Origin: Candidatus Saccharimonadota bacterium
GTDB lineage: Bacteria; Patescibacteriota; Saccharimonadia; Saccharimonadales; Saccharimonadaceae
DNA length: 64,000 nucleotides
Reading direction: 5' to 3'
Assembly: GCA_017513905.1 (NCBI GenBank)
Contig: JAFWMR010000003.1
Span: forward strand, 3,544-67,543
The position numbers were made by a program, and so were the translations under genes. Numbering within the stretch: the stretch's first letter is position 1; the number at the start of each line of letters is the position of its first letter. Positions 18,637 to 41,882 of the stretch are shown piece after piece. The notes below the pieces were generated by a model that made no database searches, was not told where the DNA came from, and saw only the letters and a program-made list of their open reading frames with translations.

Positions 18637-18728
18637 CTAAAACCCCTTCATTCCTTTCGCATTTTTCGTACGCGCTTCAATCACACTTCTACTTCTGTAA
18701 GATCGTCTAAATCCACCCAAAATGTACA

Positions 18729-19760: not shown

Positions 19761-19794
19761 ATTATTCTATTTTACTCCATACCACTTTTTAAGT

Positions 19795-21534
19795 CTACGC
19801 TCCCGGTCTTATTTTTAAGTAATCAATCAGGTAGTTCGATATTTCATTAAACACCGGCATGGCGTACTGTTCTGCACCAGTCGTCTCTCCATCTTTCCAT
19901 ATTCTCACCATCGCTAAATATTGAGGCATTTCGCCGGATCTTCCACCGAATCCTATATATGTCGCTACCCACTCATCCATCGAATACGCCCCATTACGAA
20001 TCACCTGCGCCGTTCCTGTTTTTCCACCAATATAATATCCATCTCTATCGACCCCATACGATCTCTGAGCCGATCGGGTTCCCCACAGCATCTCTCGCAT
20101 CTGTGCACTAGTCTCCTCTTTTACCGTCCTCCGTACTGGACCTTTAGCTTCTTTTTCTACAAGAACACCGTCTTCCATATAGCCCTTTACTATTGTCGGC
20201 GTGTAATACTCACCACCATTTATGAGCGATGCGTATCCGCTAGCAACCTGTATCATCGTTACCATCATATTCTGCCCAAAGGTCATATTCGCATACATCG
20301 AATCACGCCCATCACCCTCTATCGGATCATTAATCAATCCCTTCGCTTCAAATAATTCAATCCCCGTCTCCTGCCCAAGCCCGAAATGATTCACAAAATA
20401 ATCATAAAGAATTTTTCTTCCCTTCTCATTAATTTGCGTAGTATCCCCACCAATTGCTCTCAACGCATACATACTACCAGTATTGAGACTCCAGTTAAAT
20501 GCATCCTGAATAGTCCTCACGCCAAGTATATTCGATTGCCCATAGGTAGAGTTTTTAATCATCCACCCATCAACCATTTCATACCCATTATTATAGAAGG
20601 TAGTCTGAGCATTTAATGCACCCAGATCTATAGCTGTCGCAAAGGTAAAACCTTTACATACGCTCGCTGGCTCATACGGGTCAGTCGTCACTCGGTTTGT
20701 ATAGACTTCTGCGCCATCCACATTACCGTAATTTGCGGGATCATAACTCGGCAAATTAACCATCGCAAGAACTTCCCCGTTTCTCGGATTCATCACGAGC
20801 GCACTCGCCTGATCTTTACCAAATTCTTGCATCTTCTGCGCCACAATCTTCTCTACGTTCTTCTGAATATTTCGGTCTACGCTCAATACTACATTTTTTC
20901 CATCTTCAGCAGGTATTTTCACATTATCATTACCAATCGAAAGTGCAACATGATTAACGTCCGCGATTGTTTTTAGCAGACCATCCTTACCAGAAAGTTC
21001 TTCATCAAGCGAACCTTCGACGCCATATTGCCCTTCTCCATCATCATTAACAAATCCCAGGAGTCTAGCCGCCAACGTGCCCTCTGGATAAACCCTCTTT
21101 GTCATCCCCTTTAGCCACACGCCAGTCGGGTCCTTCTCTTCAATCTTCTTAGCTTGTTCCCTACTTACATTTTTTGCAACTACCATGTATCTTAGCGATT
21201 TATCAGCCGTTACGTCACTCAGTTCCACTATCAAATTATCTTTCATGTCATCAGTAAAGATAACATTCTTTAGCTCATCCTCATCTATAATCATTGGATC
21301 GACAATTATCGTATATACTTGCTTATTCATCACTACTGCTACCGGCTCGCTTCCGTCCATCATATAAATCTCACCGCGTTTAGCCTTGATTGTGTTCTCC
21401 ATCGTGTGTTGAGCTTCAGCTTTGGCTACCCATTCATTTTTCTGAATAATCTGTATCACAAATAAGCGCACCAATATAACCGCAGCTACAGCATAAAACA
21501 TCAACTTCAAAAACTTCAGACGCTTATCATTCAT
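19795..21534 (-). CDS. ftsI: penicillin-binding protein 2/FtsI-type transpeptidase
   Basis: N-terminal TM and PBP dimerisation domain, an SxxK-like motif (ASVCK), and KTG (GGKTGTAQ). Confidence 0.85.
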   Translation of the reverse strand: MNDKRLKFLKLMFYAVAAVILVRLFVIQIIQKNEWVAKAEAQHTMENTIKAKRGEIYMMDGSEPVAVVMNKQVYTIIVDPMIIDEDELKNVIFTDDMKDNLIVELSDVTADKSLRYMVVAKNVSREQAKKIEEKDPTGVWLKGMTKRVYPEGTLAARLLGFVNDDGEGQYGVEGSLDEELSGKDGLLKTIADVNHVALSIGNDNVKIPAEDGKNVVLSVDRNIQKNVEKIVAQKMQEFGKDQASALVMNPRNGEVLAMVNLPSYDPANYGNVDGAEVYTNRVTTDPYEPASVCKGFTFATAIDLGALNAQTTFYNNGYEMVDGWMIKNSTYGQSNILGVRTIQDAFNWSLNTGSMYALRAIGGDTTQINEKGRKILYDYFVNHFGLGQETGIELFEAKGLINDPIEGDGRDSMYANMTFGQNMMVTMIQVASGYASLINGGEYYTPTIVKGYMEDGVLVEKEAKGPVRRTVKEETSAQMREMLWGTRSAQRSYGVDRDGYYIGGKTGTAQVIRNGAYSMDEWVATYIGFGGRSGEMPQYLAMVRIWKDGETTGAEQYAMPVFNEISNYLIDYLKIRPGA

Positions 21535-21582
21535 CTTATGCTTATTATATCACAAATCCCCTCTATTAATAGAATGAGGAAC

Positions 21583-24665
<3,083 letters not shown>

Positions 24666-24685
<20 letters not shown>

Positions 24686-25544
24686 TTTCCAACCTCTCTA
24701 TTCTTTTTTCAATCGGCGGGTGCGTCGAGAACAATCCATTCACTCCTTTTTTCTTTAGCGGATTAGAAATAAACATTGCTTCTGTCGCTGGGTTCTGTTG
24801 TTGCATCGGTTGTGAATGTGTTTCCAATTTCTTCAAGGCCGAAATCATCCCCTCTGGGTACCTCGTTAGCATCACGGCTGACGAGTCTGCAAGGTACTCC
24901 CTTTGTCGAGACGCAGCCATCTGCGCTAAACTCGCAGCGATTGGCGCTACGACAATCGCAAGCATCAACATTATCATCCCTACCGGACTGCTATCTTCAC
25001 TACTTCGTCGATTACTACGCCATGCAATTCTCCATCCAATATCTGCGATAAAACCAATCATACAAACCAAGCCAAATACTATAGTCGAAACTCGGATATC
25101 GTAATTTTTCACATGAGACATCTCGTGAGCCATCACGGCAGTCAGCTCTTTATTATCCATGATATCGAGTAATCCGGTCGTCGCACAAACTAACGAATGC
25201 TCTGGATCTCGCCCAGATGCAAAGGCGTTCGGGGCTTTATCCTCAATAATATACACCTCAGGCATCGGCAACCCAGCTGTTATTGCCAAGTTTTCCACAG
25301 TATCATAAAGTCTTGGATTATCTTTTTTCTCAATTTTCTTAGCCCCAGTCATAGCCACCGCAATTCTGCTCGCAGCAAAATACTGAATAGTAGCATATAC
25401 TGTCGCTGCACCCATAACCCACGCCGCAATCATCCAATCATCGTAAGCGTAAGCAAATAAAGCGCCAATCGCGGCCACAAACAGCACGAACCCAATCATA
25501 ATAAAGACAGTGTTGCGCTTGTTAGCCGCGATATTTTTGTACAT
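24666..25544 (-). CDS. htpX: M48 zinc metalloprotease HtpX
   Basis: HEMSH motif, TM helices, and the C-terminal sequence STHPPIEKRI. Confidence 0.9.
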
Positions 25545-25558
25545 TTTTTACTTAGTTA

Positions 25559-26137
25559 TTAGAACTTGACGTCTGGAGCGGACTCAATCTTTGTACGCTC
25601 AGCTTCAGCAACTTCAAAGTAATCGCGTACCTTGAAATGTCCCACAATCTTATTAATAACGTTGGTCGGGAAAGTTTTAAGCTTAGTATTTAGCTCTTTA
25701 GCACCAGCATTGTAAAAGCGGCGGGCAGCCTGAATTTTATCTTCAACATCTTGAAGCTGCTCTTGGAGCTTCTGAAAGTTGCCATTTGCTTTCAACTCTG
25801 GATAAGCCTCGGCAATTGCAAAAACCTTAGAGAGCGCATTAGTCATATCCGCCTCAGCCTTCGCAGCCGACTTTACAGTCTTTGCACTCATCACGGCAGA
25901 ACGCGCTTCGGTTACGCCTTCAAATACTTCTTTCTCGTGTTTCGCATAACCCTTAACGGTCTCGACAACGTTTGGAATAAGATCCGCACGATATTTCAAT
26001 TGAACGGTAATGTCAGACCAAGCTTCATTCACACGCTCGTCAAGTTTTACCAATCCATTATATGTCGACCAGATGGCCGCAATAAACATTAATACTACTA
26101 ATAATATAACAATTAGGACTACAGTGCCTGTGTTCAT
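25559..26137 (-). CDS. lemA: LemA family protein
   Basis: N-terminal TM followed by a LemA helical domain. AAGGAG SD. The LemA-HtpX pairing is typical. Confidence 0.85.
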   Translation of the reverse strand: MNTGTVVLIVILLVVLMFIAAIWSTYNGLVKLDERVNEAWSDITVQLKYRADLIPNVVETVKGYAKHEKEVFEGVTEARSAVMSAKTVKSAAKAEADMTNALSKVFAIAEAYPELKANGNFQKLQEQLQDVEDKIQAARRFYNAGAKELNTKLKTFPTNVINKIVGHFKVRDYFEVAEAERTKIESAPDVKF

Positions 26138-26190
26138 TATTTTCTCCTTTTATACAAATAATTATATATGAATGGACAAAAAAGTAAAGC

Positions 26191-26219
26191 TTGTAAAACT
26201 CCATCAGGTTTGTTATAAT
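26191..26219 (+). promoter_or_regulatory. putative promoter of tRNA-Gly
   Basis: TTGTAA, a 17-nt spacer ending in TGt, then TATAAT, located 10 nt before the tRNA 5' end. Confidence 0.6.
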
Positions 26220-26229
26220 TCAAGAGTCT

Positions 26230-26306
26230 GCGAATGTAGCTCAGTTGTTTAGAGCGCTTCCTTGCCAAGGAAGAGGTCGAGAGTTAGAGTCTCTTCATTC
26301 GCACCA
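26230..26306 (+). tRNA. tRNA-Gly (anticodon GCC), CCA encoded
   Basis: Manual cloverleaf: acceptor GCGAATG/CATTCGC, D stem GCTC/GAGC, anticodon stem CTTCC/GGAAG with loop TTGCCAA, and T stem GAGAG/CTCTT. The T loop is unusual (TTAGAGT) and the D loop lacks GG. Confidence 0.85.
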
Positions 26307-27840
26307 TAAGAGAATTTGAAGGCTCTTCGGAGCCTTTTTTGATTGGTTTTAATCTGTAAATTGGGCAAATATTTTGTGTGTAAACATTTTTATTATCGTC
26401 CACGAAAAAACCGTCCGGAAATAGTAATTGTTTACACAATCGCATTTCTTTGGGCGGAAGACAGAGGACATTGTGAGCAAGGTTATCAATGAATCCAATG
26501 GCGAATCCGCAGAAGTCATCGAGTCTCAAGGCATCAATATCCCCAAGCTCATTTATATCCCTATCGTAACCCTTAATCCTATCCATGGCTTCCTCGTATT
26601 CGCTCTTAATCCTATCCTTCATCGGTCCAGGTTGCTCTAATAGGTATTGGCTGAAAAGTTTATCAGCCCTTTCCTTTACTCTAGCGCGTTGAGAATGCAG
26701 TTGCAGGGATTTGGACTCAAAGTCACCTTCTTCCAAGTCAAATACAGTCGACAGCGAGTCTTGAATGGCCTTCTGCCCACTCTTTGTCAGCTCCATAGAG
26801 GATACTACCTCCTTAACTTTCTCCTGTACTTCTTCCCTCGGAATCGACATATAGCATCCTCGACAGCGGTATTTGTCATATTTGCTTCCTCGATTATTTG
26901 CAACAGTGACGCCTACGAGGACATTGTATTTTGATTTAGTGCATGGGCAACCAACGTGCGTAATCATCTGGTTGAACGGGTAAAGGGGGTTGCCGGCGGG
27001 GTTGGGCCCCTTTTGATTCTTGGGTTTGTTGTTGAATGCCTCGACTATTCTTTCATGTTGTTCTCTAGTTATGAGCTTCTCGTGTAAGCCATTGGGATTA
27101 TACGCATCCACTACTTTATGCATTTCTACGACACCACAGAGGTACGGGTCAATACAAGCAGCCCGCCATTTATCCATCTTTAGCGGAGCCTTCTTTATTC
27201 CTGCTAATTCAATCGAACGATTATAGTCCCGCAGAGCAACCGTAGTGCTAACTAGGCCGTCTGCAATTCCTATTAGTTGAGCCTTAAACAGTGGCCCAAT
27301 GACTGGATCTATCACGGCTATCCCAGGTTTTGGCCCACGCATATAGCCCAACTTAGGAGGAAACGGGTAACGACCGTCCCTGATGGCTTTCTCGTGGCCC
27401 GCTTTGGTTTTCCTGGCTCTTTCCTCGTTGCTCGCTTCTCCGGCGCCAAGCGCCATGCTAAGCATTATCTTCCCGGTCGAGTCCTTGTGATTATACTTCT
27501 CGTCGGAGAAAAGAATCTCAACGCCACGTTTCTGGAATTCCACGATAAACCAACCGGCTTCATTAATCGAGCGCATGAAGCGGTCCGGTTCGTCAACTAT
27601 AACGTACTTAATCTGTTTATTTCTACTACAGAAATCCAGAGCTTCGAGCAGGTCCTTCCTATAGATGTTCTTCCCGCACTTACTAGAATAACTTCCGCTC
27701 CATATCTTTACTATCTCTAGGTTGTGCTTTTCCGCAACATTTCTAACGGACTCTTCTTGCCTGCTAAGGCTGTTATTCTTCAATTGTTCATCAGAAGAAA
27801 CCCTACAAAGGGCGATTGCTTTTTGCCTTGTCTCGTTCAT
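26284..27840 (-). CDS. large serine recombinase (integrase)
   Basis: Resolvase catalytic domain AIALCRVSSDEQ..SLSRQ, a recombinase domain, a Cys zinc ribbon (CPC...CRGC) and a coiled-coil. The ATG at 27840 has a GAGG SD. The 28 codons upstream in the ORF track were discarded. Confidence 0.85.
   Translation of the reverse strand: MNETRQKAIALCRVSSDEQLKNNSLSRQEESVRNVAEKHNLEIVKIWSGSYSSKCGKNIYRKDLLEALDFCSRNKQIKYVIVDEPDRFMRSINEAGWFIVEFQKRGVEILFSDEKYNHKDSTGKIMLSMALGAGEASNEERARKTKAGHEKAIRDGRYPFPPKLGYMRGPKPGIAVIDPVIGPLFKAQLIGIADGLVSTTVALRDYNRSIELAGIKKAPLKMDKWRAACIDPYLCGVVEMHKVVDAYNPNGLHEKLITREQHERIVEAFNNKPKNQKGPNPAGNPLYPFNQMITHVGCPCTKSKYNVLVGVTVANNRGSKYDKYRCRGCYMSIPREEVQEKVKEVVSSMELTKSGQKAIQDSLSTVFDLEEGDFESKSLQLHSQRARVKERADKLFSQYLLEQPGPMKDRIKSEYEEAMDRIKGYDRDINELGDIDALRLDDFCGFAIGFIDNLAHNVLCLPPKEMRLCKQLLFPDGFFVDDNKNVYTQNICPIYRLKPIKKGSEEPSNSLMVRMKRL
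26319..26340 (+). terminator. rho-independent terminator after tRNA-Gly
   Basis: AAGGCTC-ttcg-GAGCCTT followed by TTTT. It lies inside the 3' end of the recombinase ORF on the opposite strand. Confidence 0.7.
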
Positions 27841-27926
27841 GATTAACCTCACGGACAATATGGGGGGCTCCCTGGACAAGACATTCCGAAGAACCTCTAT
27901 GGAAGCACCCCATATTGCCAACAAAG

Positions 27927-28118
27927 TTAATTGGCGTTAACTGGTTCTTCGTTATCATAAATTGTCTTGTCCAATTCCATTATCTCATCTTTCTCATGTT
28001 TACGCCATAGGTCATATAGGTACTTTAAGAAATTAGTCGCACAATCCTGTTCTATCTTCGTGTAGCCTGCCTTGCAGACGCGTCCAGATGGGTTGTTGGG
28101 GGCGACTTTTTTATCCAT
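27927..28118 (-). CDS. hypothetical small protein (63 aa) directly upstream of the recombinase; possible directionality or DNA-binding factor
   Basis: The call rests on position only. I recognise no motif. Confidence 0.35.
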   Translation of the reverse strand: MDKKVAPNNPSGRVCKAGYTKIEQDCATNFLKYLYDLWRKHEKDEIMELDKTIYDNEEPVNAN

Positions 28119-28170
28119 GTCCCAAGTCTAAACCAACCATTAGAAGCGATAAATGACGAGCGGAGAGATT

Positions 28171-28947
28171 CTAAACAGACTTTAAACCGACTGCTTGTCC
28201 AACAATTAATTCGTAATAGTCTACTCTACGCCCAGCCTTGTGGGAGGCTATATCTATTTCGTGGCTTACATCTCGTAATGCCTTCTTAGTCTCCGAGATT
28301 GCGTCATTCCTTGCTGGGTCATCAACCTCATCACGGAAACGGGAGATGACTCCTTCAATCCCTTTTGCGGACACAGTATGCTCATCCGCCAGCAGGAACT
28401 CTTCTAGTACGGCCTCGCGCAATGGCGAATTGTTGATACCAGTGAGCAGGGCGCCATCGTAATAATAGCTTCCCAAATTATCTTTCTGAAACTTCCCGTA
28501 CAACTTCTTTTTCAGCACGGATTCAATTAATTGATCCAGGTCGGTATCGTAGATGTCTAGGGCGATGGCAGGAAAAGAATCGGGCGGGAATCCACTGACG
28601 AACGGGACCATCATCTGAGGATTCCAGCCATAGTCTTCCCCCAAGTGTCCCTGGCATAAAGCCAGAGATTGTTCATACTCGAAAGTATTGTTTGGCCGAT
28701 AAAAATGCAACAAATTCTTTTCGGAAAGAACTCGGAGCCACTTCAGAATAATGGGTTCAGTCAACGTTTCGTCACCGACCTGCGTAGGATGAAACCAGAA
28801 TTGGCAGGAGCGGCCGTTCACAAGGAACTGTTCCCGAATCTCTTCGACAACCTTCTTCAAAACCTTTCTACTCCCCTCGCTATATTCATTCATATCGAAT
28901 GGGATCATATACGCATTGTAACATGCTGAATCCGCTAGTGATTCCAC
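28171..28947 (-). CDS. hypothetical protein (258 aa; GTG start, alternative ATG at 28908)
   Basis: Long ORF with normal amino-acid composition. I recognise no motif. Confidence 0.55.
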   Translation of the reverse strand: MESLADSACYNAYMIPFDMNEYSEGSRKVLKKVVEEIREQFLVNGRSCQFWFHPTQVGDETLTEPIILKWLRVLSEKNLLHFYRPNNTFEYEQSLALCQGHLGEDYGWNPQMMVPFVSGFPPDSFPAIALDIYDTDLDQLIESVLKKKLYGKFQKDNLGSYYYDGALLTGINNSPLREAVLEEFLLADEHTVSAKGIEGVISRFRDEVDDPARNDAISETKKALRDVSHEIDIASHKAGRRVDYYELIVGQAVGLKSV

Positions 28948-29057
28948 TTTTAACAGAGGTAAAAACGTTCCTCGTGTTATATTAGTACAGAGAAAAAACT
29001 TGGTTCATAGCAATCAACGGCTTTTGCTTATATAAAGTTTGACTTATCTTGACTTCG

Positions 29058-30287
29058 CTATTTTTCTTTTGTGCAATACGGGCAATGAATATCGTCTAGT
29101 ATATCGTGAGGTGCTGTTTCCCACTCATGCCCTTTAGGACACTTCCACCAGACTTTCTTATTTGAGCTCGGGGTAATACTCGATGGCTCTGTGGCTCCAT
29201 TTTTTTCGTAGTTCCACAGCTTCAATAGATCTTGTCTAACAGTGGCCAAGTCGTTATATCCCACAATCAACTCGGTGGATGCACATTTCGGACACTTTGC
29301 GCCGTTGCATTCACTCGACACGGTACGCATGTAACTATACCCACAGTCCACACATTTCCACCAGGCTTTCATTCTTGACCACCTAGACACGCTTTCGATG
29401 TTTACTACATTCTTTTCGTAGTCCCACTTTTCTGAAATACCGGGAAAAGTTTTAATGGATTCGATAACAGTGCTGTCATTGTACAGGTCATATATCTCCT
29501 GGATATCCCTAGGTATATCAACATCAGACTCATCTACCCCTAGATAGTGAAGTACCCAGATTATTGCGGGTTTAAGGTAACTATAGTCACTGGTTATTTT
29601 GTCTACAACGAAATCTACAGATGTGCTGTTTAGCTTAGGTAACAACGGCTCTCGGACGCGTAGCAACATAATGCCGAGGCTGCTGCAGAGTTGGTTCTTC
29701 TTGATGTCTCTGTCGATGTCCTCATGCCAGTACTGCCCGTCATACTCTATTGCTATGCTTTTGCTGGGGATGAATATATCAACTTCCTTCTTCCCGTCTA
29801 TTTTTTTATTCTCTTCAACTTGGAACCCTGCCTTCCGAAGATAGTAGACAATAGCCTTTTCTGGGACAGAGGTAATCTTGTACATGTTACAGATTGGACA
29901 CGAATGATTTTTGTTTCTGCTATATATTCTGGCTTTCCACTCATGCCCTTTAGGACATTTCCACCATACAGTCTTTGTCGATCCAGCTATAACATCAGAT
30001 GGTTTGAGGTTACCATTTTTCGTGTAATTCCATTCTGCAGCGAGTTCCGGGTTGAGTGTTTCAAGGTCGTTAAAGCCCTTCAAAACTCTCCTATTTGAAC
30101 AAAACGGGCAACCTTGTCCTTTGGATACATTGTATGGCGCAGCTTGCCACTCATGTCCTCTTTCGCACTTCCACCAAACCTTTTTCCCACTGCCAGAGGT
30201 TACATCCTTAAAAGCAAGGCCAAGCTCATCATTTCGTTTATGATTCCAATACTTAGCCAACTCTGGGTGTTCGTCTTTAAGAAGCAT
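29058..30287 (-). CDS. four-zinc-ribbon protein with a central PD-(D/E)XK (Vsr/DUF559-like) nuclease-like domain
   Basis: The unit (K)VWWKC..GHEW....CP.C occurs four times. The central segment VDIFIPSKSIAIEYDGQYWH resembles restriction-endonuclease-fold proteins. TGcTATAAT lies 8 nt before the ATG. Confidence 0.7.
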   Translation of the reverse strand: MLLKDEHPELAKYWNHKRNDELGLAFKDVTSGSGKKVWWKCERGHEWQAAPYNVSKGQGCPFCSNRRVLKGFNDLETLNPELAAEWNYTKNGNLKPSDVIAGSTKTVWWKCPKGHEWKARIYSRNKNHSCPICNMYKITSVPEKAIVYYLRKAGFQVEENKKIDGKKEVDIFIPSKSIAIEYDGQYWHEDIDRDIKKNQLCSSLGIMLLRVREPLLPKLNSTSVDFVVDKITSDYSYLKPAIIWVLHYLGVDESDVDIPRDIQEIYDLYNDSTVIESIKTFPGISEKWDYEKNVVNIESVSRWSRMKAWWKCVDCGYSYMRTVSSECNGAKCPKCASTELIVGYNDLATVRQDLLKLWNYEKNGATEPSSITPSSNKKVWWKCPKGHEWETAPHDILDDIHCPYCTKEK

Positions 30288-30384
30288 ATGGGTAAATTAT
30301 AGCATATCGCGATTATAGCGATGGGATACATCGGGCGACGAATGTTTGGTCCAACTGGTATGGTATAATATCAATAACATCATG

Positions 30385-31101
30385 AGTAATCTTGACGAGT
30401 CAATCGAAAAAGCATCCGGAATCGAGAAAGTTCGATTAGTCTTAAGGAGGGCAGGTGTCGCTCTTATCGAAGATTTTTCGAGACATGAGAAGCCGCTCCC
30501 AGAATTAATTGACTGCCTGACGAAGGCATATATCTACGTATGCGATTCTTTCTACAACATGAAGTTTCTCGACATTGATAATCCAGTTTTTAAACATAAG
30601 GAAATAGTAGAATTATTCGACGGTTTGGATAAAGACAAGGAACGTGCTTTAACTATAGGTTCACGCATATGGGGAGTAGCAGTGGGGATGGCGGTTTACA
30701 AATCAGCTAAAGAAACAGGATTAGGGGTCGATTATTCAGCTGTCAGCAACTTCCTTTACGGCCTTCCATATAAGGATAAGCTCAAAAAAGAGATTATAGA
30801 AAACTCTATAAGGACAATCAATCTGTTTAAAGTCGACGATGAGGCTCATAAGTTGTCCGTGAAGCATAACGATCATGCCTTCTTCGGCCAAGTAATCACA
30901 TCAAGGGATTTAATGAGGATTTATTTGTCACTGGTAGATATAAAAAACACAGATGACGAAATCGAAGAGTGGTTTAACGCGGGGAATTTCGTAAACCCTT
31001 CGTTTACAATAGGATGTTGGACGGCCATTTCTACGTCCTATGCCCATTTAGACGTTTCGAAAGCCGTAAAAGAGATACAAGACGAATCCTTGATTAAATA
31101 A
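30385..31101 (+). CDS. hypothetical protein (238 aa from the ATG at 30385; the ORF track starts at 30346)
   Basis: Divergent from the nuclease gene. TGgTATAAT lies 13 nt before the ATG at 30385. No motif recognised. Confidence 0.55.
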   Translation, partial: SNLDESIEKASGIEKVRLVLRRAGVALIEDFSRHEKPLPELIDCLTKAYIYVCDSFYNMKFLDIDNPVFKHKEIVELFDGLDKDKERALTIGSRIWGVAVGMAVYKSAKETGLGVDYSAVSNFLYGLPYKDKLKKEIIENSIRTINLFKVDDEAHKLSVKHNDHAFFGQVITSRDLMRIYLSLVDIKNTDDEIEEWFNAGNFVNPSFTIGCWTAISTSYAHLDVSKAVKEIQDESLIK

Positions 31102-31347
31102 CATCCCTCGCCAAACAAAGTCTAAGCTACAACAGAACATAAAGGACGCATCGACAAGGTCGATGCTGAGGGGTGCGGTCGATGGGGGCTCTTCCATACC
31201 ATTGCTGTAAAATCGGTAGTAATGGGATAGTGTGGTGTGTAATAGGTAGGAAGAGGGGGAGGGGTGGTATGAATAGTAGGAATAGTTGTAGATATTGGTG
31301 TGATGGTTATGATTAATAGAGTCACTGCGTTTAGTAGAAATGGTCAT
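31048..31347 (-). CDS. possible small protein (99 aa), Tyr/His/Ser/Thr/Pro-rich, encoded across a G-free stretch of mRNA
   Basis: Its ATG overlaps the stop of the upstream 69-aa ORF (ATGA). The composition is odd, and the 3' end overlaps the convergent 30385..31101 CDS. Confidence 0.3.
   Translation of the reverse strand: MTISTKRSDSINHNHHTNIYNYSYYSYHPSPSSYLLHTTLSHYYRFYSNGMEEPPSTAPLSIDLVDASFMFCCSLDFVWRGMLFNQGFVLYLFYGFRNV
31215..31322. other. 108-nt tract with no C on the plus strand (no G on the minus strand)
   Basis: Direct reading shows C at 31214 and the next C at 31323. The tract contains GGGGGAGGGGTGG. Confidence 0.9.
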
Positions 31348-31553
31348 ACGAGCACACCGCTTTCGAGCTTGAAATTTGCGTAATTAACAGAGAGGATTGA
31401 CTGCCATCTCTTCAGTTCTTCCATGATTACCTGCCTGTCTTCGGCCGTATATTCTAACACCTTGCTCACAGGGGTAGCGTTGGTGGGCGGATTATTGTGT
31501 AAATTTTCGCCCTTATGGAGCACCATTTTTATTCCAAGACCCAAAAGGGTCAT
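31344..31553 (-). CDS. hypothetical small protein (69 aa; alternative start gives 60 aa)
   Basis: ATGA overlap with the downstream ORF suggests translational coupling. Confidence 0.35.
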   Translation of the reverse strand: MTLLGLGIKMVLHKGENLHNNPPTNATPVSKVLEYTAEDRQVIMEELKRWQSILSVNYANFKLESGVLV

Positions 31554-31692
31554 TTTTTGTCTAAAAAATAGCTTATGTGACCTCTATACGTTATAAATTT
31601 TTGCTTAAGTTTTAATTATTAAGGCAAAAGTGTTATAATCTTCCCCGAGGTTGGGCAGCACATTAATTTTTTTGAGAGGATGTGATAATCAT

Positions 31693-33843
31693 ATGGTAGG
31701 CCTCATCTTTACAGCAATAGTTGCTATTGCTGCGGTTGTCTACGTTTTCTACAACTTCTTCAAGATCAAAGCGCTTGACGAAGGAACCGAAGAGATGGTC
31801 GAAAAGGCCAGCATTATCCGCTCTGGTGCTCGTACCTTTATTGGTACAGAATACATCAGAATCGGGATTGTTGTCGCCGCAGTAGCCGCTCTCATCTCAT
31901 GTTTCATCGAACGAACCGCTGGGATTACGTTCATGATTGGCTCGCTAGTTTCCAGTGCCGCCTGTGTGCTTGGCATGGAAGATTCGACCTATGCCAACGT
32001 TCGTACCGCGAATCGCGCTCGTGAAACTAAGTCACTCTCCCAAACACTCCAGGTAGCCCTTCTTGGCGGTAGTGTACCGGGGCTCTCCGTCCCTGCATTC
32101 TTACTTATCGGATTCGTGGTTATTTGGATTGTTTATGGAGGTCCCAAGTTCGACAGTCCCGGCTCCGGTATCTTTGCAACACTCGGTAATATCAACGCTT
32201 CCGCTATGCGATTCACTACGTTCTCGCTCGGAGCATCCATCGTTGCAATGTTTAGCCGCGTCGCCGGCGGTAACTACACCAAAGCCGCCGATATCTCATC
32301 TGATATCGTCGGCAAAAACCGCTATGGCCTTGAAGAAGACGATGCACGGATTCCGAACGTTATTGCCGACTTCATCGGTGACAACGTCAACGACATCGCC
32401 GGTAATTGCTCCGACTTGCTGGAAAGCACTGGGGCCGCTACGATTGCTGCTTCGCTGATTGGCCATACTATGCACTCCAATGCAGTTTCAAAAGGTTTGA
32501 GTGGCATCACCGACAAGCTCTATAGCGCCGTTACGCTTTACCCAATACTGGTTCTTGCAGGCGGTTTGCTGAGCTGTCTCATTGGTCTGATTCTGGTCAT
32601 CCAGGTGCGCAAAAATCGTAAGGATCCGTCATCCGAAATCAACCTCATCACTTACGTTTCCGCCGGTTTGACCGTCGTGTCGTCTCTGGTGATTTCTCTC
32701 ATTGTTTTCGACAATATGCCGCTTTATGATGAGTTTATCGCCGGATGCTTCTCGCCCTGGATTACGACTGTACTCGGCATCGGATGCGGTGTAGCTGTAG
32801 GCCTTATAACCGAATACTACACCTCAACCAAATACAAACCCACGCGCAGTCTGTCAGAAATCGCAAAAGAAGGTGAAGCATTCGAAGTCACACTCGGTGA
32901 TTCCCTTGGATTCCGTTCTGTATTGCTCCCAGTCGCCTTCATCGTCGTTACTATTTTCTTCTCCGAGAAAATTGCCGGTGATTATGGCGTAGCCATGGCA
33001 GCTCTGGGCATGTTGTCCTTCGTTGGCGCAACCGTCACGATTGACGCCTTTGGCCCCATCGCCGACAATGCCGGTGGCCTCGCCGAAGCGTGCGGATTAG
33101 GTGAAGATATCCGAAAAATCACAGACGAGCTCGACTCCGTCGGGAACATGACCGCCGCTATCGGCAAAGGTTTCGCTATCAGTTCCGCGGCGCTTGCAAC
33201 CGTTTCTCTAATCAAGAGCTTCATCGGCACGTACACACCCGCCGGACAGCCGCTCGTACTGAACCTCGCAAGCGGCGACACGATTGCTGGTGCTTTATTC
33301 GGCGCCGCTCTGGTCTGCTTCTTCTCGGCAATCCTTGCCAAGAATACAATCGAAGCTGCTGCAATCATGGCCGACAAAGGCGATGCGATGCTTCGGAAAA
33401 CGCTGAAAGATGGCACTCCACCCGATTACAACCTGTGCATCCGTGAAGCAACCAAACAAGCGCTTAAGCGCATGGTCTCGCCATCACTTATTGCGTTAAT
33501 CGTTCCAGCCATCGCCGGACTTATCTTCGGGGTAAACTTCATCGGTGGTACGCTTGCTGGCGCAACATTTATCGCCGTCTGCCTCGCCATCTTCTTTGGA
33601 AACTCTGGTGGCGCATTCGACAATGCCAAGAAGTACATCGAGCAAGGCCTGCTCAAAGGCGTTTCTAAACTTATCGACGAAGAAGCCTACAAGGCTATCC
33701 ACAAAGTCGTCGTCGCTTGTGATACTATCGGCGACACTCGCAAAGACGTCATCGGCGTCGCGCTCGACATCTTCATCAAGATCATGTCGACCGTCGCTAT
33801 TACGCTGGTTCCCCTGTTCATGGCATTCAGTCTATTCGGCTGA
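31693..33843 (+). CDS. hppA: membrane-bound ion-translocating pyrophosphatase (H+/Na+-PPase), divergent in several signature motifs
   Basis: About 15 TM helices. Motifs: YTKAADISSDIVGK, DFIGDNVNDIAGNCSDLLES, GPIADNAGGLAEA and GGAFDNAKKYIE. Confidence 0.85.
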   Translation: MVGLIFTAIVAIAAVVYVFYNFFKIKALDEGTEEMVEKASIIRSGARTFIGTEYIRIGIVVAAVAALISCFIERTAGITFMIGSLVSSAACVLGMEDSTYANVRTANRARETKSLSQTLQVALLGGSVPGLSVPAFLLIGFVVIWIVYGGPKFDSPGSGIFATLGNINASAMRFTTFSLGASIVAMFSRVAGGNYTKAADISSDIVGKNRYGLEEDDARIPNVIADFIGDNVNDIAGNCSDLLESTGAATIAASLIGHTMHSNAVSKGLSGITDKLYSAVTLYPILVLAGGLLSCLIGLILVIQVRKNRKDPSSEINLITYVSAGLTVVSSLVISLIVFDNMPLYDEFIAGCFSPWITTVLGIGCGVAVGLITEYYTSTKYKPTRSLSEIAKEGEAFEVTLGDSLGFRSVLLPVAFIVVTIFFSEKIAGDYGVAMAALGMLSFVGATVTIDAFGPIADNAGGLAEACGLGEDIRKITDELDSVGNMTAAIGKGFAISSAALATVSLIKSFIGTYTPAGQPLVLNLASGDTIAGALFGAALVCFFSAILAKNTIEAAAIMADKGDAMLRKTLKDGTPPDYNLCIREATKQALKRMVSPSLIALIVPAIAGLIFGVNFIGGTLAGATFIAVCLAIFFGNSGGAFDNAKKYIEQGLLKGVSKLIDEEAYKAIHKVVVACDTIGDTRKDVIGVALDIFIKIMSTVAITLVPLFMAFSLFG

Positions 33844-33858
33844 CCAACCTCTCACCTC

Positions 33859-33888
33859 GCCCCCTTCAAAAAAGTAGGGGGCATTTTT
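33859..33888 (+). terminator. rho-independent terminator after hppA
   Basis: GCCCCCT-tcaaaaaagt-AGGGGGC followed by ATTTTT. Confidence 0.75.
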
Positions 33889-33922
33889 AATGCCTCCAAT
33901 TCTCAACCGAATCTTTACCTAC

Positions 33923-34240
33923 TTATTCAGCGTAACCACTAACAGTAGCATCAACCATCGTTGCTGCTACTTCATTCGTTTCTACAGCAGCAATACTAGT
34001 AAGCCTTGCTCGTTCCAACGCCAAATCTTCAATTTCGGCCTCTAGTTCCGCAATCTTATCATCAACTTCGTTCAGCTCATAATCATAACTTGTAGCTTTG
34101 GTCCCCTGAGTTACATAAATCAAACCAATCACAAGGACAAGTATACCCAATATCACGCCCTGAGACACGCTTCCAAGAGTTTTCGGAGTATGACGAACAA
34201 TGTTCCGATTCCGGACCCAAGTCGAACTAGATTCTCGCAT
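33923..34240 (-). CDS. ftsL: FtsL-like cell-division protein (105 aa from the ATG at 34240)
   Basis: Single TM (GVILGILVLVIGLIYV) followed by a coiled-coil (DDKIAELEAEIEDLALERARL). It lies downstream of rsmH. Confidence 0.6.
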   Translation of the reverse strand: MRESSSTWVRNRNIVRHTPKTLGSVSQGVILGILVLVIGLIYVTQGTKATSYDYELNEVDDKIAELEAEIEDLALERARLTSIAAVETNEVAATMVDATVSGYAE

Positions 34241-34300
34241 GTTTTTCTCGCAATTTTTCCTTTTTTTGTTTTTTATTTGGTTTGGTGTATATAACTTAGT

Positions 34301-34351
34301 CCGAGCCGGAGTTTCCGGGACAGAGCAATAAGTGCTCCGGGTCCGGCTCGG
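34301..34351. repeat. long GC-rich hairpin (10-bp perfect outer stem) in the rsmH-ftsL spacer
   Basis: CCGAGCCGGA ... TCCGGCTCGG with an inner GAGCA/TGCTC helix. Confidence 0.7.
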
Positions 34352-34459
34352 GAAGGTCATAAAATATTTAACACACTCTTTATTTTAGACTCCGCAACAA
34401 CCATAGTTGTGGCAGCCCTTTCGGGCCATGTCTCCCCCCATCCCCCTTTGGGTTAGACG

Positions 34460-34525
34460 TTAGCAAAAGTGAACTTTCACTTTTTGTGCACGGCTCTTGT
34501 TGGAAACAACAATTTGCTTTGGCAT
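34460..34525 (-). CDS. 21-codon small ORF with a perfect SD (MPKQIVVSNKSRAQKVKVHFC); a leader peptide or a chance ORF
   Basis: AAGGAG lies 7 nt upstream of the ATG. The ORF sits in the 378-nt spacer between rsmH and ftsL. Confidence 0.3.
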   Translation of the reverse strand: MPKQIVVSNKSRAQKVKVHFC

Positions 34526-34618
34526 ATTTTTACTCCTTTTGTTTTTATTTTTTTTATTTTTAACAATCCAAGGTTAAAGAAATACTCCACATTTCAGCAA
34601 GCCCATATATTCTCCACT

Positions 34619-35506
34619 CTACTTATAGTTCAACGGTCTTTTTGCTGCTCTCAGTTTTGCACTTCTAGCCCTGGGGTTGTTAACTAATTCAATCTCGCCC
34701 GCAACTATAGGATCTTTGTTTATAATTTCTAATTCAGATTCCTCACCAAAACTCGATGCTTCCTTAAAGAAATTCTTCACTAACCTATCCTCTAGACTAT
34801 GAAATGTAATTATTGCTACCCTTCCTCCAGGCTTTAGCACTTTCGGGATTAGCGGCAACGTTCGCTCTATTAATCCCAATTCGTCATTCACTTCTATTCT
34901 TATTGCCTGAAAAACCTTCGTTGCTGGATGTATCTTCGAGTACCTCGACTTAGCCTTTATAAAGTCAGCTAATTCTAGCGTAGTCTTAAACGGTCGAGCA
35001 TGAACGATTTCTCTCGCAAGCCTTCTCGCATTTCCTGGTCTCTCCTCGCCATACCTTACAAATATATCTACCAACTTCCCTTCCGGATAATGATTCACAA
35101 TCCTATCCGCCGTCAAGTCCTGCGTCTTATCCATACGCATATCCAACGGCCCATCCGCACGAAAAGAAAACCCTCTTTCATGTCTATCTAACTGCGGGGA
35201 AGAAACTCCAAAATCAGCCAGTACTATGTCAAAAGTCTTACCACACTCTATAATCTTCGACACTGAATTGTAAAAATCATCATTTACGATTTCTATAGGT
35301 TCACCTAAGTACTTCCCTTTTAGAAACTCCACCGCAAATGAATCTCGATCTATCAAAATCGAACCTTTATAATTCCGTGTCAAATCCAAAACTTTGCTCG
35401 CATGCCCACCATACCCTGCTGTGAGATCCAAATACGTCTCACCAAGTCTAGGGCTCAGAACCTCGAGCACTTCCGACAATAATACGGGTTTATGAAGTTC
35501 TTCCAT
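34619..35506 (-). CDS. rsmH: 16S rRNA (cytosine1402-N4)-methyltransferase
   Basis: The motif YLDLTAGYGGHA and overall MraW architecture. Confidence 0.9.
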   Translation of the reverse strand: MEELHKPVLLSEVLEVLSPRLGETYLDLTAGYGGHASKVLDLTRNYKGSILIDRDSFAVEFLKGKYLGEPIEIVNDDFYNSVSKIIECGKTFDIVLADFGVSSPQLDRHERGFSFRADGPLDMRMDKTQDLTADRIVNHYPEGKLVDIFVRYGEERPGNARRLAREIVHARPFKTTLELADFIKAKSRYSKIHPATKVFQAIRIEVNDELGLIERTLPLIPKVLKPGGRVAIITFHSLEDRLVKNFFKEASSFGEESELEIINKDPIVAGEIELVNNPRARSAKLRAAKRPLNYK

Positions 35507-35538
35507 ATGATATAAATTATATCATATGCTTCTTCTTT

Positions 35539-35559
35539 TGTTTGAGAACGCTTAACAAG
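35539..35559. repeat. left arm of a 21-nt inverted repeat (19/21 match) upstream of rsmH
   Basis: TGTTTGAGAACGCTTAACAAG compared with the reverse complement of 35798..35818. Confidence 0.8.
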
Positions 35560-35797
35560 AAATTTCAGCGTTTTTGTGTTTGTTCGATTTTTGTTTTCCC
35601 TTACACTAGATCTACCGCAATCTGCTGAAGCAAGCTTCGGCTCATATTGCGGCCGTTGAGAGATTATTGTGTAACTGGTTGCTAGACAACACTACAAGAA
35701 TGTTGTCTACAGAGTTTTAATTGGGAGGTGTTAGTTTTAGAATGTACCGACGATTTTGTTGACGCGTATCGCTAAAAGTAACCGCGCGCCAAAACTC

Positions 35798-35818
35798 CCT
35801 GTTAACCGTTCTCAAACA
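35798..35818. repeat. right arm of the 21-nt inverted repeat
   Basis: CCTGTTAACCGTTCTCAAACA. Confidence 0.8.
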
Positions 35819-35881
35819 GATATTAATGTGCTTTCGTAGATTTTTGTGTTTTGTTTTTATTTATGACATCTACTTGATAAA

Positions 35882-35910
35882 AGTATAAACGGTTTTTTTA
35901 TAAAAAGCAA
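35882..35910 (-). promoter_or_regulatory. putative distal promoter reading toward rsmH
   Basis: On the minus strand: TTGCTT, a 17-nt spacer, then TATACT. Confidence 0.4.
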
Positions 35911-35947
35911 GACTATTTTAAAACATTTTTTAACATTATTTAAATAT

Positions 35948-35968
35948 TTTTCCACAGTCTGTGGAAAA
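35948..35968. promoter_or_regulatory. perfect 10-1-10 palindrome containing two inverted DnaA-box-like 9-mers (TTTTCCACA)
   Basis: TTTTCCACAG-t-CTGTGGAAAA next to about 90 nt of roughly 85% AT sequence. Confidence 0.4.
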
Positions 35969-36059
35969 CCACTTCCCCGTTGTATCCCTGTCAGATGCTC
36001 TTAACGACGGCGCTCCGTATAATTTGACTGTCTTGAATTTCCAGATCAATATGTTGTTT

Positions 36060-36094
36060 AAAAAAACGGCGGCTCATCAAAACTGCCGTTTTTT
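36060..36094 (-). terminator. rho-independent terminator of the 36111..37127 gene (bidirectional shape)
   Basis: AACGGCGG...CTGCCGTT flanked by an A-run and a T-run. Confidence 0.75.
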
Positions 36095-36110
36095 ATACCT
36101 TAATTTACAA

Positions 36111-37127
36111 CTAGCCCCTCGGAGGTTCTCCTTCTGGTTCTCCCATTAACTTCTTACTTTTAATCTCGTATCTTAATCCCGTCACAGGAGAGACGTAATA
36201 ATCTTCATTCAGGAGATTCACGAACATTGCCAAGTCCTTATCGTCCATAATAATAATCGATTTGTCGTCATCAGTCATTAAATCGAGCTGCATATCGTCA
36301 GAATAATCAAGCATTTGTTCTTGAGTCATAGTTTCATTAATATTGAGGTTTTGAATCTTCTTAAGAAGCGGCTTTTTATCCTGCAAAAGCGTGTTCAACG
36401 TTAAACCTTCTGCGAAGCTCAGTTTATATTTTTCCTGAAGTTCCTTAGCTTTAGCATCAGCCAACAGCTGCGATTTATAGTCATATTGGAACAATGTTTC
36501 AAACTTGGTCTGGTTAAAGACAATAATGTTCCCGTCTATAATCGCCACCTGGTTATCCTCCGGCATTTTGATCGCAACTTCTGCCGAAAACGGCTCAAAG
36601 CTCTCACCATTCAACTCCCAGCTCGTCGCACCTTTTAACGCACTCGATGCCGGCAAGGCCTTAACGATATAAAACGATTTTGTTCCATCGTCACCTCCAG
36701 GATAGCTGAACTTTGCTAAAATCCCCTTTATCTTCTTAAACTCATATTCGTTATCCGTAAAGAAATCGATATCCTTATACTCATTTTCAATTAAATGAAT
36801 CAGCGTTTCTGCACGACCAACGTTTTCAAGCTTAGTATGGTAAATTACCTTATCTTCACCGTCACTTTTCTCGTACTCGCGACATTCCAAACCCTTATCA
36901 GCTTCTTTTATGATATACCCTGTTACTTCAAGCATGAACATTGCCTTAACCGAAGCAGTTAACTTGTCACTATACCGAACCTTATATGGTGTGTAATTCC
37001 TATTAAATAAGAATAGTTCTACGCTGACATTGTTTTTTACTTCTTCTACTTCATTCGCCCACTGGAACACATCAAAGAACCCACGCTGTACATCCTGAAC
37101 GTCAGAAGTGTCTGTATTTTCTTCCAT
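36111..37127 (-). CDS. hypothetical protein (338 aa); possibly DUF4868/KwaB-like (assignment from memory, unverified)
   Basis: Acidic, soluble and about 300-340 aa, with its own terminator. I can point to no catalytic motif. Confidence 0.6.
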   Translation of the reverse strand: MEENTDTSDVQDVQRGFFDVFQWANEVEEVKNNVSVELFLFNRNYTPYKVRYSDKLTASVKAMFMLEVTGYIIKEADKGLECREYEKSDGEDKVIYHTKLENVGRAETLIHLIENEYKDIDFFTDNEYEFKKIKGILAKFSYPGGDDGTKSFYIVKALPASSALKGATSWELNGESFEPFSAEVAIKMPEDNQVAIIDGNIIVFNQTKFETLFQYDYKSQLLADAKAKELQEKYKLSFAEGLTLNTLLQDKKPLLKKIQNLNINETMTQEQMLDYSDDMQLDLMTDDDKSIIIMDDKDLAMFVNLLNEDYYVSPVTGLRYEIKSKKLMGEPEGEPPRG

Positions 37128-37226
37128 AAATTACCTCTCTTATTTTCCTCCATTATATCACGGTTTTTCACACAATTCATCGATGAAGATGCAAACAATA
37201 TCATTCAAATAAACACAAATAAATCA

Positions 37227-39215: not shown

Positions 39216-39230
39216 GTCTAGGTTCCCAAC

Positions 39231-40811: not shown

Positions 40812-40869
40812 TTCACCATTATATCACAAAATGAATAGAAAAAACAACTACAAAATAAATCATTCGATA

Positions 40870-41421
40870 CTAATTTGTAAACCGCCCGTAGAGGATTTCT
40901 GTATATGTTTCTGGTACTTCGTTCTTTTCATCCAAGCTTTCAAAAGTCTTCATAACTTCATTACGAAGTTGACCTGCCGAATCTTTTTCGCCCAATTCAG
41001 CTTCAATTTTTGCGTAATAATTTTGTACGCCCTCAATTTTATCTAGGTACAATATCGTCCCCTCTCCCATTCTAATCTCCTGCCTTCGGCGAGACACCTC
41101 AGCAACCTGCTTAAAGCCTAACTGAAGAATAATATTTGCCGCTTCGGTATAATTCAAAACTTTTGTTTCGTCTACGATTTCAACATTAGAGTCCTCAATA
41201 TGACGCTTCAAAATAATGCTATATTTCGCTGGCCTATCCACCGCCTTCATCTCTGTACGCATAATTAATCTCGGGTACCCAGCATCTCTCTTGAAACTAC
41301 GCGGCACATATACGCGATCATGTTGCCAATATATCGCGCCAAAATCCATCCCTAAACCAGTTAACCGATTCTCAAAGTCTTCTCGGCTTTTCAATTTCAT
41401 TTTAACTATTATTCTTTTCAT
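40870..41421 (-). CDS. CYTH-domain protein (CyaB/ThTPase-like)
   Basis: The size and beta-rich pattern are typical of CYTH, and it has an AAGGAGAG SD. The N-terminal ExExK signature looks degenerate (VKMKLK). Confidence 0.6.
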   Translation of the reverse strand: MKRIIVKMKLKSREDFENRLTGLGMDFGAIYWQHDRVYVPRSFKRDAGYPRLIMRTEMKAVDRPAKYSIILKRHIEDSNVEIVDETKVLNYTEAANIILQLGFKQVAEVSRRRQEIRMGEGTILYLDKIEGVQNYYAKIEAELGEKDSAGQLRNEVMKTFESLDEKNEVPETYTEILYGRFTN

Positions 41422-41443
41422 TTTTCTCTCCTTGCTTTATCGG

Positions 41444-41863: not shown

Positions 41864-41864
41864 A

Positions 41865-41880: not shown

Positions 41881-41882
41881 TA

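Follow-up and report, generated by a model that had tools for sequence, protein, structure and literature searches.

Integrases of the large serine recombinase (LSR) type, such as those of A118, phiC31, Bxb1, SPbeta and TP901-1, have a resolvase domain, a recombinase domain, a zinc ribbon and a coiled coil, a very short identity between attP and attB, and a small gene adjacent to int that potentially encodes a directionality factor. Here, we describe an element that resembles them in these features, from a 64,000-nt stretch of the genome of a Candidatus Saccharimonadota bacterium (assembly GCA_017513905.1, contig JAFWMR010000003.1, positions 3,544-67,543 of the forward strand). This whole stretch is referred to as the window, and the coordinates of the element are positions within it. 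The recombinase family of this element differs from the LSRs above in that it targets tRNA and transfer-messenger RNA (tmRNA) genes at their 3' CCA end, and in that the Pfam Recombinase and Zn_ribbon_recom models mostly fail to detect it. The recombinase carries attP within the 3' end of its own coding sequence, a feature that was missed when the locus was first interpreted from its sequence without database searches (the sequence-only reading).

Attachment sites within coding sequences are known from systems with tyrosine recombinases. The ~50-kb phage Mx8 also targets the 3' end of a tRNA gene. Its attP is located inside int, and the recombinant gene formed by integration has a new 3' end and yields an integrase with altered properties (PMC6070905; cited in PMC4383910). 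Mx8 IntP/IntX and the present system are both bacterial, have attP in int and change the product upon integration; they differ in that the Mx8 enzyme is a non-homologous tyrosine recombinase, whereas here a serine recombinase is found on elements of 4-10 kb in Patescibacteria. The archaeal suicidal integrases likewise have the att site within their own gene, and those of the SSV type were stated to occur "exclusively in the archaeal domain" (PMC8371274). The SSV1, pTN3 and pT26-2 enzymes are tyrosine recombinases that are inactivated by the split, which parts the N-terminal portion from the catalytic domain, whereas only a C-terminal tail of ~55 aa is removed here and the catalytic and DNA-binding domains remain together. 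Homology of our recombinase to SSV-type (PF16795) or Mx8-type tyrosine integrases was not found, and its family-specific matches are all to serine-recombinase families. [quoted passage not shown]

Tycheposons and the tRNA-gene islands catalogued by Islander resemble the present element as small, cargo-carrying elements of streamlined genomes, located on the tRNA-proximal side of variable regions, with accretion of remnants (10.1101/2020.12.28.424599; PMC4383910). They differ in that tens of tRNA nucleotides are duplicated and replication genes are often carried, whereas here 6-9 nt are duplicated at the CCA end, and a replication gene was not recognised. Tyrosine recombinases are used by 910 of 937 tycheposon-like elements (97%; 10.1101/2020.12.28.424599), and, according to a 2014 statement by the authors of Islander, integrases of the serine family were not known to target tRNA genes (PMC4383910). 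Of the two parts of the Islander definition, the present element has the tRNA insertion with the gene restored, and its integrase is not a tyrosine recombinase. No description of the Saccharibacteria family was found in a full-text literature search confined to one library. The enzyme itself is a divergent member of the LSR family. The element fits no described family with the same architecture, and the location of attP within its own gene is not known to have been described for serine integrases.

An element with attP inside its recombinase gene

Public contigs of the same species were retrieved through a look-up with the LemA protein. The element is present in three contigs from different samples (L001-L003), each of which matches the window over 20 kb at 100% identity. 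Two independent contigs from other samples, L004 (13 kb) and L009, lack it. Both flanks are 99.1-99.3% identical to the window, a single copy of the core GCACCAT is present, and tRNA-Gly(GCC) is followed immediately by a terminator and hppA (...cattcGCACCATttttattccaagacccaaaagggtcatttttt). As GCACCAT is found twice in the window and once in the empty site, the limits of the element can be assigned exactly (Table 1). It is a site-specific integrative element and a real mobile element of about 5 kb, which agrees with the smaller of two sizes proposed in the sequence-only reading, and the empty site has the order anticipated there, with tRNA-Gly directly followed by hppA. The larger size, 7.5 kb including hppA, was incorrect, since hppA follows the tRNA in the empty site and is thus outside the element; likewise, the limits given then (26230-31650) are too wide.

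The tRNA gene is the only one in the window (ARAGORN). It is intact after insertion, with a genome-encoded CCA end, and its sequence through CCA is the same in L004 and L009. For this element, the attP junction is CGCCCTTATGGAGCACCATAAGAGAATTTGAAGG and the attB junction is CATTCGCACCATTTTTATTCCAAGACCC. The terminator of the host is now 5.2 kb away from its tRNA owing to the insertion. The composition of the element is only mildly atypical and close to that of the host (GC 0.437 versus 0.430; tetranucleotide distance rank 57 of 59 windows), so that the comparison suggested earlier is weak as an island test and not decisive. Four further contigs of this species from Logan (L005-L008) end inside tRNA-Gly, at window positions 26258 and 26278, and not at the att core; these ends are probably due to branching of the assembly graph where strains or species share tRNA sequence.

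The sequence-only reading correctly placed an LSR of 518 aa next to tRNA-Gly(GCC); the tRNA is identified by ARAGORN and Rfam, and the two genes are convergent, with the last 23 nt of the recombinase ORF (open reading frame) overlapping the tRNA 3' end. The domains named at that time are recovered by different means. The catalytic domain is detected by Pfam (PF00239, E = 3e-21, residues 36-186 of a 546-aa ORF), the motif AIALCRVSSDEQ with the region of the nucleophilic serine is retained across the family alignment, and phage integrases are matched through phrog_95 (E = 2e-41). The Pfam search of the window recombinase detected neither the Recombinase domain (PF07508) nor a zinc ribbon, and Pfam Recombinase is precomputed on only 5 of 120 homologues. 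However, the family profile aligns with the A118 integrase (PDB 4KIS, 6DNW; E = 5e-9) across the end of the recombinase domain, the zinc ribbon and the coiled coil, with A118 residues 74-276 aligned, which include the end of DBD1. The zinc-ribbon cysteines C298, C326 and C329 are invariant in the family alignment, where they are part of HVGCPC...YRCRGC. The XisF model aligns over residues 38-373, far under its cutoff. The protein is therefore classified as a divergent LSR, based on the A118 match and the invariant cysteines despite the Pfam miss. The identity between attP and attB is short, at 7 bp in this element and 6-9 bp in the majority of relatives, and is consistent with this assignment. 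A 546-aa reading from TTG at 27924, with 28 extra codons, was considered and rejected: the conserved RNA hairpin described below explains the conservation of this N-terminal extension, and a GAGG Shine-Dalgarno sequence is located 6 nt ahead of the ATG at 27840, which is the preferred start (518 aa).

The recombinase ORF crosses attL. Its end (...SNSLMV|RMKRL*) is encoded first by the core and thereafter by the strand antisense to the tRNA, such that the last five codons (RMKRL) and the stop of the 518-aa form are derived from the tRNA gene. When the element is circularised in silico, the ORF continues in frame for 58 codons into a 69-aa ORF at the far end (31344..31553), resulting in a protein of 571 aa that ends in ...LMVLHKGENLH...RQVIMEELKRWQSILSVNYANFKLESGVLV. 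The frame would stay open over this length by chance with a probability of about 0.03. The detached tail segment, with the motif EELKRWQSILSVNY, shares homology with the C-terminal ends of P0001, P0004, P0026, P0027, P0088 and P0105, which are free-form proteins, and with those of long forms reconstructed from 18 genomes. Judged by these alignments, the 69-aa ORF is a split-off C-terminal coding segment of the recombinase and not cargo, and the tail would be part of the protein only while the element is excised.

The tail was aligned using the reconstructed long forms of the 18 genomes, four free forms and the window. The consensus is (I/L)xxE(I/V)xRW(R/Q)xIL(S/A)VxY, or E..RW..IL.V.Y in short form. 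Mean pairwise identity is 0.42 in the tail motif and 0.41 in the recombinase and zinc-ribbon region, compared to 0.26 in the coiled coil and 0.27 in the linker. Since the tail is as conserved as the DNA-binding domains and more conserved than the coiled coil, it is considered a selected part of the protein.

Distribution, free forms and conserved RNA structures of the family

To place this recombinase, 623 relatives were gathered in a search with the 571-aa sequence; every named one is from Candidatus Saccharibacteria. The C-terminal ends were classified in the top 120 homologue clusters. In most of these (72 of 120), the terminal peptide is ..VR(M/A/V)x(R/G)L, read antisense to tRNA-Gly; about 30 have other tRNA-antisense ends (e.g. 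GLEPPTFSV and RESNSH), and six are longer with a true tail. A scan of GTDB, with one genome per species, identified 104 loci, of which 80 were kept, nearly all from metagenome-assembled genomes (MAGs) of Saccharibacteria, Saccharimonadales or Patescibacteria. In at least 63 of the 80 loci, the recombinase gene overlaps an antisense tRNA or tmRNA with its end, and at least five of the others stop at the contig end. The targets in the 63 loci are tRNAs for Gly (36), Arg (11), Glu (5), Ser (4), Val (3), Ala, Leu and Lys (1 each), and one tmRNA. The integrated recombinase genes are overwhelmingly intact and full-length across the 80 species.

A hidden Markov model of the tail detects a detached tail upstream on the recombinase strand, 3.6-8.8 kb from the gene end, in 44 of the 80 loci; 47 matches are in forward frames and 0 in reverse frames. 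Core counts were limited to loci with a core starting with TGGT, as a search for the longest repeat gave spurious 6-mers in about nine loci. The core TGGT(G/A) is the reverse complement of ..(C/T)ACCA. In all 20 loci with this core, joining at the core restores an open, in-frame gene with the tail (20/20; chance 3e-10), and the implied element sizes are 3.9-8.2 kb. Only three loci were obtained from IMG/VR, all on contigs of 37-45 kb; the family is essentially absent from viral catalogues.

The interval between lemA, tRNA-Gly and hppA is a hotspot, occupied by different elements with different cargo in related species. Loci L012 and L015 share lemA, tRNA-Gly and hppA with the window and L014, and have the tRNA and element inverted relative to lemA; the hotspot itself may be rearranged. 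At L042 (tail matches at 1371 and 5187) and L066 (142, 3602 and 5343), serial detached tails are found upstream of a single recombinase, which points to insertion in tandem or to decayed elements accreting at the same tRNA, as in tycheposon islands. Locus L085 (9484..9870), from a MAG labelled Berkelbacteria, has a member at the 3' end of tmRNA, with a TGGTGGA core and an in-frame tail 7.9 kb upstream. Members are also present in MAGs labelled Doudnabacteria (L035), Dormiibacterota (L065) and Magnetospirillaceae (L086); the L065 and L086 contigs are probably mis-binned from Saccharibacteria, as their tRNA-Gly/tRNA-Phe context is alike, although the host range of the family may be wider.

Long-form relatives (546-597 aa) are located on contigs of 4.1-10.6 kb without a tRNA. 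Four of the five long-form contigs overlap at their ends by 21-30 nt, which would fit circles: L010 (4,092 bp) and L011 (4,635 bp) with 30 nt each, L096 (6.5 kb) with 21 nt, and L097 (10.6 kb) with 23 nt. The fifth, L095 (5.1 kb), has none. The 30-nt overlap in L010 and L011 equals k-1 of these assemblies, which is a circle signature. In L095, the long-form member (3798..5054, minus strand) convergently overlaps a second, canonical LSR with Resolvase, Recombinase and Zn_ribbon_recom domains.

Two RNA structures are associated with the recombinase gene. Eleven nt past CCA, the element has a predicted tRNA terminator of the intrinsic type, GAAGGCTC-TTCG-GAGCCTTT with a T-run behind it, antisense to the 3' coding region of the recombinase, where the same nucleotides are read as the peptide KKGSEEPS (KK[DG]S.E.S in the family). 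Of 64 family elements, 63 have a hairpin with a T-run at this position, compared to 61 of 311 control windows taken from inside the same recombinase genes (Fisher p = 3e-35). The stems vary while pairing is kept (GGCTC/GAGCC, GACTC/GAGTC, GGACAC/GTGTCC and GAGCGC/GCGCTC). This conservation across the family supports the prediction that the element supplies a replacement terminator for the tRNA.

The second structure is a leader stem-loop, without an Rfam family, in which the region of the stop codon of the upstream 63-aa ORF is paired with the Shine-Dalgarno sequence GAGG of the recombinase. It is kept in eight related elements with recombinases of 61-68% identity (37 pairs, 6 compensatory). 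Its conservation in the family supports a role in occluding the ribosome-binding site of the recombinase. Since the hairpin masks this site and also spans the stop codon that ends the 63-aa ORF, translation of the recombinase is likely coupled to that of the 63-aa ORF.

Cargo and genomic neighbourhood

The sequence-only reading listed six cargo ORFs. All are present as ORFs, and four of them are credible genes (63, 258/245, 409 and 251/239 aa); the 99-aa ORF is dubious, and the 69-aa ORF is the recombinase tail. The genes for the 409-aa, 258-aa and 63-aa proteins and the recombinase form an operon-like series on the minus strand, with the 239-aa gene divergent. The recombinase is the only gene that is universal across 23 delineated elements.

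Table 1. Positions of the features of the element and of neighbouring genes in the window.
Feature	Position	Strand	Evidence or remark
tRNA-Gly(GCC), integration target	26230..26306	+	ARAGORN; Rfam RF00005, 70 bits
attL core GCACCAT (last 6 nt of tRNA plus T)	26301..26307		alignment to empty loci L004 and L009
Integrative element, 5,219 bp including one core copy	26308..31526		exact absence in L004 and L009
Large serine recombinase, integrated short form, 518 aa	26284..27840	-	ORF; Pfam Resolvase; phrog_95; A118 profile
Predicted element-borne intrinsic tRNA terminator	26318..26343	+	terminator scan
Predicted leader stem-loop, 90 nt	27842..27931	-	RNA fold -42.8 kcal/mol, z = -5.0, 0/200 shuffles as stable
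63-aa protein	27927..28118	-	just upstream of recombinase; homologues in same position
258-aa protein (245 aa from ATG 28908)	28171..28947	-	55% identical to 234-aa protein of L010
409-aa protein	29058..30287	-	four DUF4379 treble-clef zinc fingers flanking a Vsr/DUF559/MTES_1575-like PD-(D/E)xK nuclease domain
239-aa protein (251 aa from TTG 30346)	30382..31101	+	all-helical near-orphan, divergent
99-aa ORF, low-complexity, H/Y/S/P-rich, probably not a gene	31048..31347	-	not called as gene on identical public contigs
Detached recombinase tail segment, 58 codons and stop	31344..31519	-	tail motif; in-silico circularisation; homology to long-form C-termini
attR core GCACCAT, right copy of 7-bp direct repeat	31520..31526		alignment to L004 and L009
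Host's own tRNA terminator (GACCC-AAAA-GGGTC plus T-run)	31538..31557	+	terminator scan; adjoins tRNA in L004 and L009
371-aa ORF between ligA and htpX	23570..24685	-	kept in element-free strain
hppA	31651..33843	+	outside the element
ftsL	33923..34360
rsmH	34619..35506
KwaB-like protein (DUF4868), 338 aa	36111..37127	-	outside the element
526-aa fusion protein	39231..40811	-	XRE-type and EPSP-synthase/MurA-type domains

Homologues of the 63-aa protein are found in the same position in L010, L011, L013, L014 and L016 (47-48% identity, E = 1e-13), and small ORFs hold this position in many other elements. The location suggests that it is a candidate recombination directionality factor (RDF) or regulator; since RDFs lack conserved sequence motifs (PMC12286644), sequence does not decide its role. 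For the 258/245-aa protein, searches of two very large protein databases gave 6 and 15 homologues, the 15 by an exhaustive profile search. Its AlphaFold2 (AF2) model has a predicted local distance difference test (pLDDT) score of 57, and a Foldseek search against the PDB gave nothing at E <= 0.001, with winged helix-turn-helix regulators as weak best matches. The gene is element-specific, and, as a weak lead, its product is possibly a winged-helix DNA-binding protein.

The view that the cargo is entirely uncharacterised has to be revised for the 409-aa protein. It has four stretches matching Pfam DUF4379 (E = 9e-68) and a match to phrog_559 (E = 5e-44); the nuclease assignment is based on an MTES_1575 match under its cutoff (E = 5e-6) and a weak Vsr match. 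As it is missing from L010 and L011 and represented by a 698-aa homologue in L013, it is considered optional cargo. For the 239-aa protein, a search of 5.8e9 proteins returned two entries, one of them a homologue; similarity to a 275-aa protein of L011 is weak (23%, E = 4e-5), and the AF2 model is all-helical with low confidence (pLDDT 57). The 63-, 258-, 239-, 99- and 69-aa ORFs have nothing convincing in Pfam, PHROG, PADLOC or NCBIfam. The search for iterons or a replication origin, using repeats and tandem repeats of the island, yielded only the internal repeats of the zinc-finger gene, and promoter matches in the island were no more frequent than in shuffled sequence.

The element is flanked by lemA, htpX, the 371-aa gene, ligA, ftsI, mraY and ftsW on one side, and by hppA, ftsL and rsmH on the other, the latter three where the sequence-only reading had put them. 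The ftsI-ftsL gap is 12.4 kb, as estimated then; the island accounts for only 5.2 kb of it. The other ~7 kb (ligA, the 371-aa gene, htpX, lemA, the tRNA and hppA) is native order that is also found in the element-free strain. The 371-aa protein has no match in Pfam, PHROG, PADLOC or NCBIfam. The gene hppA, next to the tRNA hotspot and present in the element-free strain, has a GC content of 0.51 versus 0.43 for the window, which suggests an older horizontal acquisition. Past rsmH, a KwaB-like gene (Pfam E = 2e-9; PADLOC KwaB E = 1e-9; NCBIfam far under cutoff) is located beside a UvrD helicase gene, with no obvious KwaA; it is also present in L004. The 526-aa protein has an unusual fusion of an N-terminal XRE-type helix-turn-helix (PF01381, E = 8e-15) to an EPSP-synthase/MurA-type domain. 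In the flanks within 18000..42000, nearly all genes are on the minus strand and the GC skew is about -0.3, relaxing to -0.1 to +0.17 at 25.5-33 kb.

Proposed mechanism and significance

Based on these results, we propose that the locus represents a Saccharibacteria-wide group of elements with an LSR that has attP inside its own gene, loses its tail upon insertion, and thereby switches between two isoforms; we estimate the probability of this explanation at about 0.8. The anatomy, i.e. the insertion site, the split gene, and the conserved tail, terminator and hairpin, is secure. In the excised circle, a continuous gene would encode a 571-aa enzyme with the conserved tail. Recombination takes place inside the core GCACCAT, the discriminator-CCA end of tRNA-Gly(GCC), and the element is located exactly at the tRNA 3' end with the tRNA kept. 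In the inserted state, the recombinase gene stops after five foreign codons, at 518 aa, with the tail-coding segment stranded 5.2 kb away at attR. The full-length enzyme from the circle is likely integration-proficient. The truncated enzyme may be attenuated, altered, or in need of a directionality factor, for which the 63-aa protein is a candidate, and truncation would thereby stabilise the integrated state. Thus, the long and short isoforms may report the integration state to the enzyme and tune its activity or directionality, a function suggested by the precedents of Mx8, the suicidal integrases, RDF fusions and the binding of RDFs at DBD2.

Several observations weigh against this proposal. 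The short form keeps every recognised LSR domain and may be fully active. The terminal overlaps of the free forms are also compatible with tandem copies. The attP junction of this element had no match in the JGI metagenome contigs (one collection scanned), and all island-bearing contigs are identical, without a direct sign that this copy excises. No replication, transfer or packaging genes were recognised in the element. The crossover dinucleotide cannot be placed inside the 7-bp identity from sequence, and the attP palindrome, CTTATGG-TGCT-CCATAAG, is centred on GC, which is itself palindromic and unusual for an LSR.

An alternative is that the locus is an ordinary LSR island, in which attP is located at the 3' extreme of the gene by chance and the downstream frame is without function. 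In its favour, the chance that the frame of a single element stays open for 58 codons is about 0.03, and the short form has the complete set of canonical LSR domains. This explanation is nevertheless quite improbable in light of the family: the tail motif is conserved as protein, at the level of the DNA-binding domains, among members with only 30-40% identity in the core, it occurs solely in the strand and frame of the recombinase, and its conserved part is 60-150 nt past the core, beyond a plausible attP arm. Constant loss of a conserved tail could also mean that the enzyme is strictly suicidal. Tail loss would then kill the enzyme, and integrated copies would be trapped unless a co-resident circle supplies full-length recombinase, as proposed for SSV-type elements. 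The model has been described for archaeal integrases (PMC8371274); it would fit the large excess of integrated over free forms (~100 versus 6 of 120 clusters) and the tail remnants in L042 and L066, which suggest elements that stayed. However, a dead short form is less likely because all known LSR domains (the catalytic, recombinase, zinc-ribbon and coiled-coil regions) are kept and the integrated genes are intact in 80 species, which suggests ongoing selection on the short form; in addition, element-free and element-bearing strains coexist at 99% identity. We consider this strict version unlikely.

It is also doubtful that the main content of the element is its cargo, in the form of an undescribed accessory or defence system. 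Relatives do carry restriction-modification (R-M) genes, both as type II pairs of a C5 methylase with a Bsp6I-like or a MutH/Sau3AI-like endonuclease and as a type I system; they also encode a KAP NTPase, an AAA_15/AbiEii-like ATPase and a GIY-YIG nuclease, and in the window a zinc-finger/Vsr-like nuclease is next to orphan genes. Yet the PADLOC check of the island proteins gave no convincing match and no model with a qualifying stretch, only marginal ones without such a stretch (DruE to the 409-aa protein, E = 7.5e-5; Csn2 to the 251-aa ORF, E = 2.7e-4); the 245-aa protein (6-15 homologues) and the 239-aa protein (one), with their low-confidence structures, do not define a conserved multi-gene module, and the 245-aa gene accompanies the integration module rather than the nuclease. 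Finally, an ancient recombinase domesticated beside the tRNA, an alternative raised in the sequence-only reading, would agree with the near host-like composition; it is refuted by the empty site in a 99%-identical strain, with circular free forms among the relatives and differing elements and cargo at the same hotspot further opposing it, and retains practically no probability.

Proteins fused to the C-terminus of a serine integrase, such as an RDF, can reverse its directionality (PMC5737554), and RDFs bind DBD2 near the base of the coiled coil (PMC12286644). The tail emerges from the zinc-ribbon domain DBD2, the same domain that RDFs bind. A tentative extension of our proposal, for which we see some but not even odds, is that the tail is a cis-encoded directionality module, gained or lost by the element's own recombination, giving a self-contained bistable switch set by the state of the DNA. 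If true, "integrase-RDF fusion" logic would have its first natural case, and the suicidal integrases a first counterpart among serine recombinases; Patescibacteria would then also be a ready source of small LSRs whose targets at tRNA ends can be predicted. The family offers a natural test of how LSR directionality is controlled by C-terminal appendages at DBD2, a question that currently occupies integrase engineering.

The architecture of attP inside int is hereby extended to bacterial serine recombinases; as it is known in tyrosine recombinases, it arose independently in two unrelated recombinase superfamilies. The tRNA and tmRNA targets contradict the 2014 working rule that only tyrosine integrases target such genes. 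The family may have been missed because its DNA-binding domains escape the Pfam models required by island-mapping pipelines: a current pipeline discards serine integrases without the Pfam Recombinase domain (PMC12884075), and most of the family, in which this domain is mostly undetected, would be filtered out by it. The dual-coding terminator illustrates how tightly these elements are packed, with a peptide linker that doubles as the antisense terminator of the host tRNA. For Saccharibacteria, the elements represent widespread minimal vectors of 4-10 kb for R-M and other cargo. Little is known of the mobile elements of these ultra-small episymbionts, for which few genetic tools exist, and compact integrases with a known attB at tRNA ends could be useful.

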